Virus record (IMG/VR): IMGVR_UViG_3300017733_000025
Source of the DNA: a virus
Length of the DNA stretch: 32,900 bases
Direction: 5' to 3' (one strand)
The translations under genes were made by a program, and so were the position numbers. A model generated the notes under the pieces. That model had not been told where the DNA came from, ran no database searches, and saw nothing but the letters and a program-made list of their open reading frames with translations. Position 1 is the first letter of the stretch. Every line of letters begins with the position of its first letter. Shown piece by piece: positions 1-32,900 of the stretch.

Positions 1-123
1 GCTAAAACCAACAACATCTCCTACGGGAGAAGAAGTTGAGTATGAGGTTATAAATGCCTCGCCTGTATATTTTATTTTACCGCTTGCAGTTCCTTCGGGT
101 GAATACTCATAAGAAAGCGAACC
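1..123. repeat. Terminal direct repeat, copy 1 (identical to 32778-32900)
   Basis: The first 123 nt reappear as the last 123 nt. The repeat lies inside an ORF that reads through the junction, so it looks like the overlap of a circular assembly rather than a physical terminal repeat. Confidence 0.9.
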
Positions 124-11641: not shown

Positions 11642-12070
11642 TTATTCCTCCTCTTGATCTATTACTATTTCTTTTTCTCTATCCAATGCTTGTCCGTCCG
11701 ACCATTCTAAATTGACTTCTACGGGTTTGTTTGGATCAAGATTAACGCTTAATCTATCTCTACGGCCGAACTTATCGGGATACTTGCGCTCTAATACCCA
11801 TGCGTCCGCCTGCCAATTACCCTCCTCTGCGACCTTTTCAATACGCGCTAAACGGCGCATAATGGCCTCTGATTCGGCTAGTTGGACTTCTTTCCAAAAT
11901 GATTTATAAGGCTCTATGTCCTTTTCGGCCTTTTGGCGCCATTTTCTAAATGTAGAGCTATCAATCCCCGCATAAAAGCAAGCGTGTTCTATATATGATC
12001 CAAGCCGTATTGCTTGTAATAATCGGGATCTAATCCCCTCGTCTATTAATTTATATGGTTTATTATTCAT
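11642..12070 (-). CDS. terS: Terminase small subunit (HTH type)
   Basis: 142 aa. N-terminal HTH-like segment (GIDSSTFRKWRQK) and ...ADAWVLERKYPDKFGRR, typical of small terminases. Upstream of terL. Confidence 0.7.
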   Translation of the reverse strand: MNNKPYKLIDEGIRSRLLQAIRLGSYIEHACFYAGIDSSTFRKWRQKAEKDIEPYKSFWKEVQLAESEAIMRRLARIEKVAEEGNWQADAWVLERKYPDKFGRRDRLSVNLDPNKPVEVNLEWSDGQALDREKEIVIDQEEE

Positions 12071-16350: not shown

Positions 16351-17097
16351 TTATTCCAAATTTTCTTGCTTTTCTTTTCCGCAATATAAACATAAAAATA
16401 GGCGGTATTGCCCCACATATCCCGTATCTCGCCATTTATGGCCGTCTATGGCGCAATCATGCACCTTTTGTGGCTTGTTTTCATCTACCATTTGACCTAA
16501 TAATGTCCAATTTTTAGATATTGCAAACGGCGTTAATGTAATATCTTTCCATTTAGTCTTATAAATTTTTACCCGATCCGCTACTTCGTCGGGGGTTCCA
16601 CCTGCTGTATAAATATCTTTTACTACTTTATTGAATCCGCTAATTTCCGTTTTTGTTTTAGGTTCATAATCTAAAGCAATAGATAACGCGCTATAAATTT
16701 TATAGCGCTCATTCTTTTGACTTTGGTTAGATGACTTTGGTTTGTAGTCCGTATTTGATACGCCCCCTTGTTCATATTTGATACCCCCTTTACGTTCATT
16801 TTTGAACGCGGGATTGTAAATTATTGTGTATAGATTGCTTGTTTGCCCGTCGTCGTTATATCGGGGATCAATTACAATTGCTCCAATTTTTTCTAATTCT
16901 TTCAATCCGCGCTTTACAGTACTTGGAGATTTTCCACATTTTTGTCCAATTGTTTTAATACTTGGCCAACATGATCCGTCAATCTTATCTGCGTATCTAC
17001 ATAGAACGGAATATACGCGAAAAGCATTATCAGAAATTTCACTAATTGTTAGCCACTCGGGTATAATAGAAAAGTATAGCTGTGCATTTATTTGCAT
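16351..17097 (-). CDS. Putative replication organiser/initiator (winged-helix N-terminal domain, C-terminal Cys/His cluster)
   Basis: N-terminal AFRVYSVLCRYADK..GSCWPSIKTIGQKCGKSPSTVKRGLKELEKIGAI is typical of phage HTH replication/DnaD-like proteins. Sits next to the annealase. Confidence 0.5.
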   Translation of the reverse strand: MQINAQLYFSIIPEWLTISEISDNAFRVYSVLCRYADKIDGSCWPSIKTIGQKCGKSPSTVKRGLKELEKIGAIVIDPRYNDDGQTSNLYTIIYNPAFKNERKGGIKYEQGGVSNTDYKPKSSNQSQKNERYKIYSALSIALDYEPKTKTEISGFNKVVKDIYTAGGTPDEVADRVKIYKTKWKDITLTPFAISKNWTLLGQMVDENKPQKVHDCAIDGHKWRDTGYVGQYRLFLCLYCGKEKQENLE

Positions 17098-17137: not shown

Positions 17138-17752
17138 TTATTTACTTGTGTTTTCTTCTATTGATTTCTTTTGAGCTATTTGCTTTGCTAAATCATCTGC
17201 GGTAATAACCTTACCAAATTCAGCGGGTTTATCATTTTCAATTTTTGGTTTTGGCGTTTCTGCTTTTGGTTTCGGTTTAGGTTTTGTTTTTGTAGTTGGT
17301 TTTGGATCTAGATAAGAACTAATCCAAGCGCTTGTATCATAAAGCTCAATCCCAATTCCAAGTCGCATTCCGCAACGCTTAACGGCGTCGCTAATACATT
17401 CTTTTAATCTTTCACCATTATTATTAACGCGTCTATTTTCAACCTCAAAAGGTTTGTCGCACATACCCGCCTCAACAACCGATCTAAATTTTCCGTCAAT
17501 TGTACCGCTAATTTTATAAGTACAACCCGTTAATATAGTTAGTTTGTCTCCGTCCGCGTTGTAGTGCGTATCATAAAAAACGTCCATTAACTCCATTTGT
17601 ACGTCATCAATTAAAGCAATTAATTTCTGCGTTACTTGAGTATGTTCAACGTATGCAATTCCGTCTTTCTTGTAAGATACGTTTAGCTTTTTTACAACAG
17701 ACGGATTCCAAGCTTTGCTTAATTCAATCTGCGTATTTCTTTTATTTGTCAT
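17138..17752 (-). CDS. Rad52/Sak-like single-strand annealing protein
   Basis: The motif ECISDAVKRCGMRLGIGIELYD matches the conserved Rad52/Rad22-family signature. Lys/Pro-rich linker and acidic tail. Confidence 0.7.
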   Translation of the reverse strand: MTNKRNTQIELSKAWNPSVVKKLNVSYKKDGIAYVEHTQVTQKLIALIDDVQMELMDVFYDTHYNADGDKLTILTGCTYKISGTIDGKFRSVVEAGMCDKPFEVENRRVNNNGERLKECISDAVKRCGMRLGIGIELYDTSAWISSYLDPKPTTKTKPKPKPKAETPKPKIENDKPAEFGKVITADDLAKQIAQKKSIEENTSK

Positions 17753-18525: not shown

Positions 18526-19077
18526 TCAAGCGTCTTTAATTTCATATCCAAAATTTTCTAATACGGCAAGACAAAAGTTTTCCAAATCCGCTAAATCTAG
18601 GCTTATGATTCCGCCCGTAGATCCGTCAGGCATTGATACATGAGCAAACGGTTTTTTTTCGGATCCAATTGCAATATGGTTAAAATCGCTTTGCCTTTTA
18701 CCTTTCATAAATACATTTACCAAAGGTTGAACTTGCTTACCGCTTTTAACTTCTACTCGTAATCCGCCAAGCCAATTCTCCTCGTGCGCGTCCGCTCCCG
18801 CAAACCTATTTGACGGAATTTTTAATAATTTTCTAGCTTGGTTTTGTTTTCGTCGGCCTTTTGATCTATTACGTCTGTTAATACATTTACGACATTGACA
18901 TTTGTTCTTTTGTTCTTGAGTAACATCACATTGGCCAATAGATCTTTTAGAACTATTTTTTTCGCTCATTGAGCGGGGTAAATTATTTTCTTCCCCTTTT
19001 CTACGTTTCCAATCACTATAAGTTTCATCAGGCCTTATATCAAATTCGTTTGGCTCTTTGCCTTTTATTTGTCCCAT
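18526..19077 (-). CDS. Putative PD-(D/E)xK-type nuclease / resolvase with a basic Cys-containing N-terminus
   Basis: GADAHEENWLGGLRVEVKSGKQ contains a D...E-x-K arrangement. The N-terminal CQCRKC cluster and Arg/Lys-rich segment suggest nucleic-acid binding. Weak call. Confidence 0.35.
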   Translation of the reverse strand: MGQIKGKEPNEFDIRPDETYSDWKRRKGEENNLPRSMSEKNSSKRSIGQCDVTQEQKNKCQCRKCINRRNRSKGRRKQNQARKLLKIPSNRFAGADAHEENWLGGLRVEVKSGKQVQPLVNVFMKGKRQSDFNHIAIGSEKKPFAHVSMPDGSTGGIISLDLADLENFCLAVLENFGYEIKDA

Positions 19078-19162: not shown

Positions 19163-19786
19163 TTATAATGCGTTGTTTTCTCTAAGGAAATCCTCACAAA
19201 AATTTATTAGCGCTTTTGTTTTAGATTGAGATTTATTATCTAAATTATAAAGATCTTTATAACCTTTAATTGCTTTATCTAATATGACCAATTCATCTTC
19301 ATTAAAATAAAATGTTCTTGAATACATTGACGTCCGATCGCCTGTTTCTATATCTCCGAACGCGTCGTCAAATGTCATTGTTCCCGCTATCTCAAAAAGT
19401 TCTTTTTCCGTGTATGATATTGCGTCCAATATTGAGGGGTCGCTCTCTAGAGAACTAAGCATGTCGGCCAAAAAATCTTGATCTATTGTCCCCAATTCGC
19501 TTGTTCTATTATCCGCAATAGCAAAGGCTTTAGCCGTTAATTCGTCATCATCTGTAAAGACAACGGCTATATGCGACCAACCTAGTTTTCGTGCGGACTC
19601 CAACTGATGATTGCCCGATATAACCGTTCCGTCTTTAGTTGCAACAATTGGTTTTCGTTGCCCGAATTTGTCGTATGATTTTGCAATTGCATTTACATCA
19701 CCTCTACGAGGATTGCCGTCTAAATGTTTTAATTGATCTATTGGCGTTGCTAACTCTATAATTGATTCATTAATTTTATGATTCAC
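19163..19786 (-). CDS. ParB-like nuclease-domain (ParB N-terminal/sulfiredoxin-like) protein
   Basis: LDGNPRRGD...GQRKPIVATKDGTVISGNHQLESARKLGWSHIAVVF matches the ParBc domain pattern (NPR ... G-x-H-R/Q ... A-x-x-L-G). ATGA overlap with the upstream Mom-like gene. Confidence 0.7.
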   Translation of the reverse strand: MNHKINESIIELATPIDQLKHLDGNPRRGDVNAIAKSYDKFGQRKPIVATKDGTVISGNHQLESARKLGWSHIAVVFTDDDELTAKAFAIADNRTSELGTIDQDFLADMLSSLESDPSILDAISYTEKELFEIAGTMTFDDAFGDIETGDRTSMYSRTFYFNEDELVILDKAIKGYKDLYNLDNKSQSKTKALINFCEDFLRENNAL

Positions 19787-21428: not shown

Positions 21429-21458
21429 ATTATACACATTTTTTTTAATTCAATACAA
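21429..21458 (-). promoter_or_regulatory. Putative leftward early promoter (TTGTAT-N18-TATAAT with TG extension)
   Basis: Seen on the minus strand in the 96-bp divergent intergenic region. It overlaps a degenerate copy of the conserved spacer motif oriented toward the plus-strand gene. Confidence 0.4.
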
Positions 21459-21517
21459 GATTTATTAAATACGAGATTGTTTTTATATTTGGTGTTAGTA
21501 TTAGTGCAAACGAGCCA

Positions 21518-22729
21518 ATGGTAAAAAAAGCAAAAAAAATAACCAAAAATAAACAAGAAATTCCTCATAATCTTGATTTAGGTAACAACTATTACCCGTC
21601 GGGTTGGAAACCAAAGCTTGAGTTTGATCATAATACAAACGTTGGAGAACTAACTCATATTCAACCACAATCAGACAATTTTAAATTTAATGAACTATTG
21701 GATTCATGGGGTTACGATTCAAACGTTTTCTACATAGAGGAGGATAGAATAAAATTCTCTACATGGGAGGCTCAATCTAAAGGCGGACAAGTAATTCAAA
21801 TGTTTGCTTTTAAGGCAACTATACGGAGAAAAAAACCTAAACATAACCAATATATAAAAAAGCTTGAACGTCAAATTGCAAACAAAAAGCCCGTAAAGGT
21901 ATCTCAAGAAGTTGGAGATCATGCTTTTTTCTTTTTTTGTGCCGATTGGCAGTTCGGAAAATCTGAATACAACGCCGAATGGGGAGCCGACGAAACCATT
22001 GATTATATTCGCAATGGAATTATTAAAGCTAAAAAACAAATACGGGACTTGAACAAATCGGGTCAAATAATAGACGAAATTTATATAATAGGTTTAGGAG
22101 ATTTAATTGAGAATTGTTACGGATTTTTTGACCACCAACCTTTCAACGTAGAGCTAACCCGTACAGAACAAGAACATCTAGCTCGTAAAATGTTGCTTGA
22201 AGTACTAGACGGATTATTAAAACTAGCTCCTAAAATTGTTATCGGAGCCGTTGTTGGTAACCATTCTGAATATAGATCAGGAAAAAATCAAGTATCAACA
22301 TCAAGACTAGACAACTCCGATACCGCAATATTTCAAATCGTTGGAGAAATTATTGAGGATAGAGAGAGATACAAGCATGTTAAAACAGTTGTGCCTAATG
22401 ATTTTTATTTAACAATTGACGTTAAAGATCAAAGATTAACTTTTTATCATGGTCACATGACGGGTGGCGGATCCAACATAGAAAATAAATTAATGAATTG
22501 GTGGAAAAATCAAGCCCATGCAAAAATCGTAAGCGGAAGTTCGGACATTTTAGTATCGGGACATTATCATCATTTACGAGTATTAACTGAACGTGGCCGT
22601 ACTTGGTTTCAATCCCCCTCGCTTGATACATCAAAAGAATTAGAGGCGCGTATGGGATTAACAACTTCACATGGAATATTAACATTCACCGTTTCAAAAA
22701 ATGGTTGGGATAATCTAAAAGTACTATAA
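21518..22729 (+). CDS. Calcineurin-like metallophosphoesterase (Mre11/SbcD-like nuclease candidate) with a ~140-aa N-terminal extension
   Basis: Ordered motifs GLGDLIEN, VGNHSE, FYHGH and SGHYHH match metallophosphoesterase blocks II-V. One of only two plus-strand genes. Confidence 0.7.
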   Translation: MVKKAKKITKNKQEIPHNLDLGNNYYPSGWKPKLEFDHNTNVGELTHIQPQSDNFKFNELLDSWGYDSNVFYIEEDRIKFSTWEAQSKGGQVIQMFAFKATIRRKKPKHNQYIKKLERQIANKKPVKVSQEVGDHAFFFFCADWQFGKSEYNAEWGADETIDYIRNGIIKAKKQIRDLNKSGQIIDEIYIIGLGDLIENCYGFFDHQPFNVELTRTEQEHLARKMLLEVLDGLLKLAPKIVIGAVVGNHSEYRSGKNQVSTSRLDNSDTAIFQIVGEIIEDRERYKHVKTVVPNDFYLTIDVKDQRLTFYHGHMTGGGSNIENKLMNWWKNQAHAKIVSGSSDILVSGHYHHLRVLTERGRTWFQSPSLDTSKELEARMGLTTSHGILTFTVSKNGWDNLKVL

Positions 22730-22903
22730 AGAACTCGTTGATCAAAAAAACAATGTTGATTTTTAACGGTTTAACTCGTTAATTTTTAAATTGATTCCTA
22801 CGTTTAAGGGTTTAACTCGTTAAATTTCAAAACAAATCCTACGTTTAAGGGTTTAACTCGTTGTTTTTCAAAACAAATCCTACGTCTAACGGTTTAACTC
22901 GTT
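22727..22903 (+). repeat. Iteron-like tandem array, 41-bp period, about 4.5 copies (core GGTTTAACTCGTT)
   Basis: The core sits at 22768, 22809, 22850 and 22891, exactly 41 bp apart. A partial copy (AACTCGTT) lies at 22732. The flanks (aaatcctacgtttaag) are also conserved. Confidence 0.85.
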
Positions 22904-23070
22904 TAAAAAATAAAGAGATAACAACGCTTGTGGTTACTTGTTTTTCTAAAATACCCCCCACATATAGTATGTTTTAAAAACCGTTTGCTTAAATAATTGG
23001 AATTTCTATCTTGTGGTTTAACCGTTTAGACGCACTGCCCGAACTTCTATCCGTCCGTTTAACACGGCGC

Positions 23071-23160
23071 CCGTGCATGCAATAATTCGCGCGTCCTATT
23101 TAGACGGTTTCCGTGCATGTTGGACAACGCGTGTCCTATTTAGACGGTTTCCGTGTATAA
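23071..23160 (+). repeat. Second tandem array, 40-bp period, about 2.3 copies (CCGTGCATG...GTCCTATTTAGACGGTTT)
   Basis: 23071-23110 and 23111-23150 align with few differences, and a third unit begins at 23151. Locally GC-richer than its surroundings and followed by an AT-rich tract. Confidence 0.8.
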
Positions 23161-23188
23161 ATCCATTTAAAAAAATATTAAATAATAC

Positions 23189-23216
23189 TTGCATTTAAAT
23201 CTAAGATTGCTATGTT
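23189..23216 (+). promoter_or_regulatory. Conserved phage promoter motif, copy 6, plus-strand orientation (TTGCAT-N16-TATGTT)
   Basis: TTGCATttaaatctaagattgcTATGTT, 26 nt upstream of the 61-aa ORF, which has a GGAGG SD. Confidence 0.5.
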
Positions 23217-23242
23217 TAAGTCAAGAAAACGGAGGAACATAA

Positions 23243-23428
23243 ATGAAATTATTTATAAAATTAGTATTAATTTCTATATTTAACAAAAAGTATATTAATT
23301 GGAATCAATTAAGTTTAGATCTTGCTTTTTCTTTAGCGAAAACAAATCTTTTGTTTCACCCTGAAGATAAGCCATTTAATAAACTTCTTACTAATAATGA
23401 AATAAAAATATTAGTTAGCGACGATTAA
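23243..23428 (+). CDS. Hypothetical 61-aa protein with a hydrophobic N-terminus (stand-alone cassette)
   Basis: It has its own promoter motif, a GGAGG SD and a downstream terminator. N-terminal MKLFIKLVLISIF looks like a signal or TM segment. Confidence 0.5.
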   Translation: MKLFIKLVLISIFNKKYINWNQLSLDLAFSLAKTNLLFHPEDKPFNKLLTNNEIKILVSDD

Positions 23429-23449
23429 ATATATTATAAAAAGTAAAAT

Positions 23450-23476
23450 GGCGGGATCATAACTCCCGCCATTTTT
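23450..23476. terminator. Bidirectional intrinsic terminator between convergent units
   Basis: 7-bp stem GGCGGGA/TCCCGCC with a 7-nt loop, T-run downstream on the plus strand and A-run upstream. Serves both the plus-strand cassette and the end of the late operon. Confidence 0.65.
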
Positions 23477-23569
23477 GTGTCCTAACAAGTGTCCAATTTG
23501 TCGTCAAACACAAAGCATAATCAAAGATGAAAAGCGTTCTTTCTTTTTTGCTTATACTTATTTTTAAGC

Positions 23570-23752
23570 TTACATCAATATAGTTATAAGAGTAGCAATA
23601 GATATTCCTGCAATGATCCAACCATAAATCTCTTGCCGTGTTGGTCGCGTTGCTAAATCTTTCTGTATTTGATCTAGTTTCTCAAATAATTTCTCTATGT
23701 CTTTCATAACTTTATTGATCATTTCTTTTTGAGTATATCCGTTATCGGCCAT
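23570..23752 (-). CDS. Tail-anchored small membrane protein (XhlA-like architecture), last gene of the late operon
   Basis: N-terminal amphipathic/coiled segment plus a C-terminal TM (IYGWIIAGISIATLITILM). AAGGGG SD. Confidence 0.5.
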   Translation of the reverse strand: MADNGYTQKEMINKVMKDIEKLFEKLDQIQKDLATRPTRQEIYGWIIAGISIATLITILM

Positions 23753-32732: not shown

Positions 32733-32900
32733 CTAATGAGTACCGCGTGTTACCGCACCCGAAACTTGCATATCTGCGCTAAAACCAACAACATCTCCTA
32801 CGGGAGAAGAAGTTGAGTATGAGGTTATAAATGCCTCGCCTGTATATTTTATTTTACCGCTTGCAGTTCCTTCGGGTGAATACTCATAAGAAAGCGAACC
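32733..32900 (-). CDS. Short tail-tube paralogue, C-terminal part (same gene as 1-366; 32778-32900 duplicates 1-123)
   Basis: The reading frame is continuous through the junction and ends ...GFSADMQVSGAVTRGTH with TAG at 32733-32735. Confidence 0.75.
   Translation of the reverse strand, partial: GSLSYEYSPEGTASGKIKYTGEAFITSYSTSSPVGDVVGFSADMQVSGAVTRGTH
32778..32900. repeat. Terminal direct repeat, copy 2 (identical to 1-123)
   Basis: See copy 1. Confidence 0.9.

Follow-up and report, generated by a model that had tools for sequence, protein, structure and literature searches.

What does a tandem array of 41-bp repeats do in the non-coding DNA of a phage when some close relatives of that phage lack it? 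This question is raised by IMG/VR virus record IMGVR_UViG_3300017733_000025, a stretch of 32,900 nucleotides (hereafter the window) from an uncultured marine siphovirus, in which such repeats begin just behind the stop codon of an exonuclease gene (exo). The initial annotation had described the array as phased sites for a DNA-binding protein and had considered a replication origin, a partition site and a packaging site as possible roles. The general reading as protein-binding sites agreed with the comparisons reported here, whereas origin, partition and packaging were not supported as essential roles. The 41-bp repeats are probably docking sites within an optional cassette, and not an origin, partition or packaging site. 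As a tentative explanation, we favor an accessory cassette, non-coding and acting in cis, of which the array is the left arm and on which a DNA-binding protein would dock.

Architecture of the repeat cassette

The 13-nt core GGTTTAACTCGTT occurs as exact copies at 22768, 22809, 22850 and 22891 (22768-80, 22809-21, 22850-62 and 22891-903), spaced by exactly 41 bp, and these four copies are the only ones in the genome. When up to two mismatches were allowed, 0 of 100 shuffles reached the observed number of matches. Tandem Repeats Finder (TRF) reported the interval 22762-22903 with a period of 41, 3.5 copies, 88% matches, 0 indels and a score of 207, and the 8-mer GGTTTAAC was present in five copies, all within 22768-23022 and none elsewhere on either strand of the 32.9-kb window. 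A partial copy had been noted at 22732; it reads AACTCGTT, lies in register and follows 3 nt past the TAA stop (22727-22729) of the 403-aa gene. The four exact cores, the TRF period and the in-register partial copy thus confirmed the phased array. The 41-bp register was kept within 1 nt at nine successive positions from 22727 to 23056, namely 22727 (partial), 22768, 22809, 22850, 22891, 22932, 22973, 23015 and 23056. The repeat feature is bigger than first noted, with degenerate in-register sites and a second, GC-rich array downstream. Its parts are as follows:

22730-23166, plus strand: non-coding cassette of 437 bp, with the exo TAA stop directly 5′; present as an indel difference from the relatives L018, L414 and L419
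22732-22739, plus strand: truncated unit 0, which has only the 3′ half of a core and precedes the corresponding bases of the first complete core by 41 bp
22755-22918, plus strand: left array of four 41-bp units, each with a 13-nt 5′ flank, a 13-nt core and a 15-nt AT-rich variable spacer
22904-23075, plus strand: conserved central region of ~170 bp, with an AT-rich stretch, degenerate sites and two palindromes
23071-23155, plus strand: right array of GC-rich 40-bp repeats (CGCGYGTCCTATTTAGACGGTTTCCGTG...), TRF period 40, 2.1 copies

In the left array, flank and core form a conserved block of 26 bp per unit, and the 15-bp spacers are AT-rich and resemble one another. The 13-nt flank TCCTACGTYTAAS is common to three units, and flank and core together hold two direct GTTTAA half-sites, 8 bp apart. 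The core itself is asymmetric and not an inverted repeat. The central region opens with its AT-rich stretch (22904-22925) and continues with degenerate in-register sites, which are GGTTACTTGTT at 22932, a further site at 22973, GGTTTAACCGTT at 23015 and GTTTAAC at 23057; its palindromes are ACATATAGTATGT (22960-22972) and CACGGCGCCCGTG (23063-23075). A weak promoter-like site lies near 22986-23013. Every repeat of the right array holds the small palindrome ACGGTTTCCGT.

No open reading frame (ORF) longer than 41 aa was found in the cassette, and none was conserved between the window genotype (W) and its sister lineage (M). Furthermore, the cassette had no match in the phage collection, the plasmid collection or Rfam. 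Two familiar kinds of repeat were considered and rejected: the cassette ends are not inverted repeats and share only a TAAA microhomology at the junction, which does not fit a miniature inverted-repeat transposable element or insertion sequence, and a conserved block of 26 bp with short, AT-rich, mutually similar spacers and no cas gene found does not fit an array of clustered regularly interspaced short palindromic repeats (CRISPR).

Distribution among relatives and constraint on the cores

A total of 69 loci with exo homologs were recovered, and informative genomes were then found by exact protein sequence look-up. The W genotype was represented by eight loci on seven contigs from at least six marine samples, which were 99.7-99.97% identical and had no indel in the array; one further W contig had a 1-nt insertion there. 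Samples with this genotype include JGI 3300017738, 3300017745, 3300017771 and 3300017772, the runs SRR8675860, SRR10522792, SRR10522793 and SRR10600455, and TARA runs. In the M lineage, a complete homologous cassette was present in the uvMED genomes AP013371 and AP013373 as well as in L415 and L430, while AP013372 and AP013550 begin or stop within a cassette. The complete M cassettes are 500-540 bp long, contain four or three cores and have a longer GC-rich arm (period 40, 2.2 copies plus degenerate units). They carry ACTCGTT at the place equivalent to unit 0, and the cassettes of the M-type genomes are closed by the same terminator as that of the window. AP013371 holds a natural core variant, GGTTAAACTCGTT. 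Across the cassette-bearing records, the 41-bp spacing was found in 20 of 21 intervals.

The cassette lies within a rearranged segment. In relatives, the usual order is late genes, p60, exo, p58 and SLT on one strand with short intergenic gaps, and since nearly all relatives have this co-linear order, there is no conserved non-coding region at that junction. The window and a few close relatives have the segment from exo to the accessory gene (~21440-23480) in inverted orientation, and no convincing inverted repeats flank the inverted module. L414, L419 and L018 share the inversion and lack the whole cassette, so that the exo stop is followed directly by the predicted promoter P of the next gene; the cassette is also absent from all relatives with the canonical orientation. 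Complete genomes without the array include contig k127_75483 of TARA ERR599350 and L018-type contigs. At the nucleotide level, exo of W and exo of M were 93% identical; among the inverted genomes, those with the array and those without it shared 85% identity in this gene, and against genomes with the usual orientation the value was 72-79%. By parsimony, the cassette was gained once, in the common ancestor of W and M.

The motif was not encountered elsewhere. No GGTTTAACTCGTT core within one mismatch was present in 553 kb of relatives, and exact searches with a core pair or one full unit returned nothing from viral, metagenome and genome collections, although these scans evidently did not include the window's own genotype. 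A loose search for three copies of GGTTTAAC was poorly specific and returned only unrelated repeats, mostly coding ones whose period was 33, 36 or 42; at best, the flanks matched at 18/26 positions, the 8 fixed bases included. Strings from the conserved central region and blastn against phages and plasmids gave no match, and no donor sequence for the cassette was found in any collection searched.

The proteins to which the repeats might have been assigned are retained where the cassette is missing. Array-free L414 keeps TerS at 97%, Rep at 94% and the ParB-like protein at 94% identity, and in L414 and L419 together Rep and the ParB-like protein are each 94-95% identical. The winged-helix recognition region of Rep is the same in both genomes, and the recognition helix of HTH70, a 70-aa HTH protein, is likewise unchanged in array-free L414. 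Since L414 lacks the cassette and retains all three proteins, the readings as an essential origin, centromere or pac site are unsupported.

The strongest positive evidence came from comparing how the parts of the cassette change. Twelve distinct 41-nt units from eight contigs were compared pairwise, and on average two units differed at 1.3% of core positions, compared with 32% for the 5′ flank and 38% for the spacer. The baseline between W and M was taken from the four-fold degenerate sites of six genes, which differed at 97/468 positions (21%). Against this baseline, the cores had 0/52 changes (Fisher p = 1.7e-5) and the central region had 14/171 changes, or 8% (p = 1.4e-4). The other positions of the left array, with 24/122 changes, differed at about the four-fold rate, and the right arm had 27/91 mismatches and 80 gap columns. 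By this comparison, purifying selection acts on the cores and the centre but leaves spacers and right arm unconstrained, and the right array is evolving rapidly in both sequence and length. The absence of change in the cores beside spacers at the four-fold rate marks the cores as putative binding sites under selection, and this constraint is the main positive evidence indicating that proteins bind there.

The accessory operon and the proposed docking platform

The cassette is enclosed by exo on one side and a short transcription unit on the other:

21518-22729, plus strand: exo, Mre11-type exonuclease gene, 403 aa, phrog_284 ("exonuclease", E = 3e-51)
23189-23216, plus strand: promoter P, with -35 TTGCAT, a 16-nt spacer and extended -10 TGcTATGTT
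23243-23428, plus strand: 61-aa accessory ORF with a hydrophobic N-terminus, present also in array-free L018
23445-23475, no strand assigned: terminator with a perfect 12-bp stem, which ends the accessory operon on the plus strand and lies opposite the end of the late operon

The initial annotation located exo correctly and called it a phosphoesterase gene; the phrog_284 match instead points to an Mre11-type exonuclease. The gene also had a weak Metallophos_2 match and matches of ~25% identity to actinophage proteins annotated as MRE11-like. No terminator precedes the cassette, and therefore it is probably transcribed by read-through from exo. At its other end, the right array stops ~25 bp upstream of promoter P, which is followed by a GGAGG ribosome-binding site and an ATG at 23243 and is predicted to drive the accessory gene.

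Promoter P is one of six near-identical copies of a promoter-like element, ACTTGCAWTTAAATCWWAGATTGSTAWGTT, located at 2978(-), 13016(-), 16035(-), 16347(-), 20828(-) and 23189(+). All have a -35 TTGCAW, a conserved 16-nt spacer and an extended -10, and at least three copies (16347, 16035 and 23189) have an ORF with a Shine-Dalgarno sequence within ~40 nt. That the spacer is conserved suggests a dedicated regulator. Upstream of exo, at 21448-21490, a weaker relative carries an AAGATTG motif. In relatives, the slot of the cassette is filled by promoter-gene-terminator cassettes. The M-type genomes L411 (10184-11700) and L415 (9344-10820) have an extra cassette of this kind downstream, which encodes a 161-aa DUF7717 protein and is closed by the terminator AAAATGGCGGGATC(A/G)TAACTCCCGCCATTTT, a sequence that recurs after the next gene. 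Judging from these arrangements, it appears that the repeated promoter and terminator delimit units in which accessory genes are shuffled.

In the explanation that we favor, the cassette would serve a single sequence-specific DNA-binding protein as a docking platform with several sites. Three to four identical sites in the same orientation, one per 41 bp or about four helical turns, would all be exposed on approximately the same side of the helix, each site being the 13-bp core or ~20 bp if a TYTAAS extension is included, and weaker in-register sites would follow within the conserved 170-bp centre. Cooperative binding could then build a higher-order nucleoprotein complex. With still less confidence than in the docking itself, we suggest that this complex might control the accessory operon around the cassette, possibly by blocking or insulating read-through from exo or by regulating the promoter at 23189. 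Such a local effect is favored because the cassette adjoins the exo stop at one end and comes within ~25 bp of promoter P at the other. An effect on the neighboring accessory operon seems likelier than a second origin or a decoy function.

Several observations weigh against this explanation. A search for genes that co-vary with the array gave no convincing candidate, and no binding protein was found; only p82 and p76 were restricted to array-carrying genomes, and neither had a DNA-binding signature. No recognizable phage DNA-binding protein is array-specific, so either a conserved protein of the phage or one of the host may be the binder. The promoter lies 290-460 bp downstream of the four strong sites, a long distance for bacterial activators or repressors of the ordinary kind. 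The test for selection rests on the two lineages W and M, and paralogous units may have been aligned that are not true orthologs. One haplotype has a 42-bp interval, and the 41-bp register may merely reflect the mode by which units were duplicated. Finally, the layout of iterons followed by AT-rich and GC-rich DNA resembles a plasmid origin at least as much as a regulatory region. A further protein, p53, was examined as an array-linked gene and rejected, since homologs of it are also encoded by array-free relatives, for example L021, and it has no DNA-binding signature.

Genome context and competing readings

The two ends of the window (1-123 and 32778-32900) are identical over 123 nt and lie within a tail gene, a homolog of a 136-aa Phage_tail_2 protein. 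The assembly is therefore complete and circular, with a unit length of 32,777 bp, and a physical terminal repeat was rejected in favor of an assembly overlap. Nearly all genes are on the minus strand, the plus strand carrying only exo and the 61-aa ORF. The early region comprises SLT, Mom, the ParB-like gene, a Rad52-like protein and the HTH_36 Rep; a run of small genes is followed by TerS, TerL, portal, protease and capsid genes, and the map further holds tail genes, lysis genes and a 60-aa gene that ends at 23570. The gene positions on which the initial annotation had relied were correct, with Rep at 16351-17097, 5.6 kb from the array, and the ParB-like gene at 19163-19786; terS lies at 11642-12070, 11 kb from the cassette. 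No integrase, ParA or tRNA was found among the ORFs scanned or in the genome. There is no close cultured phage, the top TerL matches being T5-like phages at 27% identity.

Two further features were recorded in the early region. At 17243-17305, a TTTTGG hexanucleotide repeat with 10 plus-strand copies codes for the (PK)n linker of the Rad52-like protein, and this coding repeat is unrelated to the cassette. The unannotated 183-aa protein encoded at 18526-19077 combines a CxC...CxxC cluster with a strongly basic segment and with a D...EVK motif resembling that of a PD-(D/E)xK nuclease; it had no family match, though it is kept in relatives at 41-95% identity.

The initial annotation had held that an origin at the array would not be embedded in the initiator gene. 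This premise was contradicted by the Rep gene, which encodes a protein of 248 aa and turned out to have iterons of its own:

16683-16830, minus strand: rival origin candidate in the Rep gene, outside the cassette, with dyad sites, repeats and a palindrome

Three dyad sites with a 23-bp period, GTTCAAAAATGAAC, GTATCAAATATGAAC and GTATCAAATACGGAC, were found there (TRF 16745-16809, 2.8 copies), along with two copies of AACCAAAGTCA and the AT-centred palindrome GCGCTATAAAATTTATAGCGC. Dyad sites and AACCAAAGTCA-type repeats recur at a gene offset of ~350 nt in seven further Rep homologs with ~41-94% aa identity, and the repeats are kept at the DNA level although the encoded linker peptide varies. 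In phage lambda, the origin maps within gene O and consists of four 19-bp dyad repeats bound by O dimers (PMC5043065). The repeats in the Rep gene match this layout, and the comparative data point to a lambda-like origin there, with 16745-16830, and not the cassette, as the counterpart of lambda ori.

Among the competing readings, the one that survives best, although we consider it unlikely, is a second origin or replication-control element. The cores would be iterons for a Rep supplied in trans by a host or plasmid, or for an unrecognised phage protein, and the stretch 22904-22925 with the centre would be the region for unwinding and host factors; the element would provide an extra start site or titrate an initiator. 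Plasmid theta origins such as those of RK2, P1 and pSC101 are iteron origins, and they resemble the cassette, as does lambda ori, in having phased repeats of one orientation followed by AT-rich and GC-rich DNA. The centre is under apparent purifying selection, and the element is non-coding and adjoins recombination and replication genes. Iteron origins usually have a period of 20-24 bp, however, and the 41-bp period of the cassette is about twice that. The repeats have the uniform orientation of an iteron origin, but neither an adjacent cognate initiator gene nor a requirement in cis was found: the cassette is 5.6 kb from Rep, its core is unlike the iterons in the Rep gene, and sister phages whose Rep is 94% identical live without it. 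No DnaA box within one mismatch was present in the cassette, and the genome-wide count of such boxes equaled the chance expectation. The GC skew, which had been proposed as a check for an origin, tracked gene orientation only. In phage P4, the cis-required crr lies kilobases away from ori and forms a second cluster of iterons. The cassette is similarly a repeat cluster far from the initiator gene and the primary iterons, but crr carries the iteron sequence of its ori and is essential, whereas the motif of the cassette differs and the cassette is optional.

A functionless minisatellite produced by slippage, or an element acting as RNA in the 3′ untranslated region of exo, is rather improbable. 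Copy number does vary between three and four, the right-hand repeats evolve fast, and read-through from exo would place the cassette in an RNA. A uniform neutral process, however, cannot give unchanged cores beside spacers that diverge at the four-fold rate and a centre that has diverged by 8%. Against an RNA element, folding energies compared with shuffles gave z = -0.06 for the centre and +0.35 for the right arm, with a marginal z = -1.8 for the left array; the scores for the central region were close to 0 on both strands, and neither covariation or compensatory pairs nor an Rfam match was found.

We regard a decoy as a long shot. Repeated sites would here sequester a DNA-binding protein, which could be a regulator of the host, a sensor of a defence system or the initiator of a competitor, and the carrier phage would benefit. 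Phage morons are promoter-gene-terminator cassettes inserted between conserved genes, and the cassette resembles them in its slot, which holds such cassettes in relatives, in its intergenic presence or absence among close genomes and in the repeated promoter P at its flank. Morons carry an ORF, whereas the cassette has no ORF with a promoter and terminator of its own, so that its cargo, if functional, would be DNA sites and not a protein. It could then be a "non-coding moron" whose cargo is an array of high-affinity sites, a naturally selected DNA decoy against the host, its defences or a competing mobile element, a possibility to which we give the same low standing. Selected sites with no partner gene nearby fit this idea, and ectopic origin copies are reported to arrest phage lambda (PMC4488673). 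Against it, no related motif was present in any phage, plasmid or bacterial genome searched, and three to four strong sites would offer little titration capacity unless amplified by phage replication.

A pac-type packaging site, with the small terminase making its first cut in or near the left array, is very unlikely. Its attraction is that the genome-length records AP013372, AP013550 and JGI Ga0181428_1000019 and one short contig begin or end in the left array, and pac-type ends would look similar in contig-end data. The lambda cosB R sites and SPP1 pacL/pacR, which are recognition sites for the small terminase subunit, are likewise several phased protein sites in non-coding DNA; they lie at or in terS and are essential, whereas the cassette is optional and distant from terS, and TerS is nearly unchanged in array-free L414. 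The window and several other records assemble straight through the cassette. The contig ends vary in position, and each of them coincides with a repeat, be it a 41-bp unit or the beginning of promoter P; three other contigs end at 23178, 23179 and 23238. Because the positions differ and all lie on the 41-bp repeats or the six-copy promoter P, the clustered ends are probably assembly breaks at repeated sequence of variable copy number. Ends from independent assemblies cluster at 22788-22903 and 23178-23238 (L428, which is AP013372; L429, which is AP013550; L076, L077, L073, L427 and L072).

The primary origin of the phage, bound by the HTH_36 Rep, is a still poorer candidate, despite the iteron-like geometry and the presence of a Rep gene. 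The reading is largely refuted by the array-free relatives L414, L419 and L018, in the first two of which Rep and its recognition region are preserved. Moreover, the Rep gene has its own lambda-like iterons, conserved throughout the phage group and down to ~41% Rep identity, and the core GGTTTAACTCGTT is unrelated to GTTCAAAAATGAAC and its variants.

The least likely of all is a centromere-like site for the ParB-like protein. The sopC locus of the F plasmid has 12 direct repeats of 43 bp, each with a 16-bp SopB site (PMC3177203), and the cassette resembles it in having tandem units of about four helical turns in one orientation, a short core within a less constrained unit and a variable copy number, in addition to the ParB-like gene. 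The core of sopC, however, is an inverted repeat bound by a helix-turn-helix ParB that is encoded alongside together with ParA, whereas the core of the cassette is asymmetric and its array is optional. No ParA-type ATPase was recognized by a family match in any ORF scanned or in the precomputed Pfam lists of the sister genomes, and plasmid-maintenance genes were likewise not found. The ParB-like protein, for which PHROG ParB-like matches cover residues 13-156 only and Pfam gave no match, is 94% identical in array-free L414 and is encoded beside Mom, and its relatives occur in DNA-hypermodification clusters. In L413 and L417, whose exo is 55% identical, two ParB_N proteins stand where the window has Mom and one ParB-like gene, followed by Amidoligase_2, LMWPc, P-loop kinase and Tet_JBP genes, with ADDT also in L417. 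This gene content is that of a thymidine-hypermodification-type cluster and suggests that the ParB-like proteins serve DNA modification and not partition. In summary, the geometry of the array is closest to F sopC and to iteron origins, yet the testable defining features of both were not found.

The comparison illustrates that iteron-like geometry alone does not locate an origin, and the repeat cassette probably accounts for the broken assemblies of this phage at this position. Should the cores be docking sites, the cassette would be a cis-element that is under selection although phages can dispense with it, and that one lineage of an abundant group of uncultured marine phages has gained. It would then be a clear natural case of phage accessory DNA that acts as sites, with no recognizable cognate gene, and the public close genomes with and without the cassette provide a ready-made comparison for its function.

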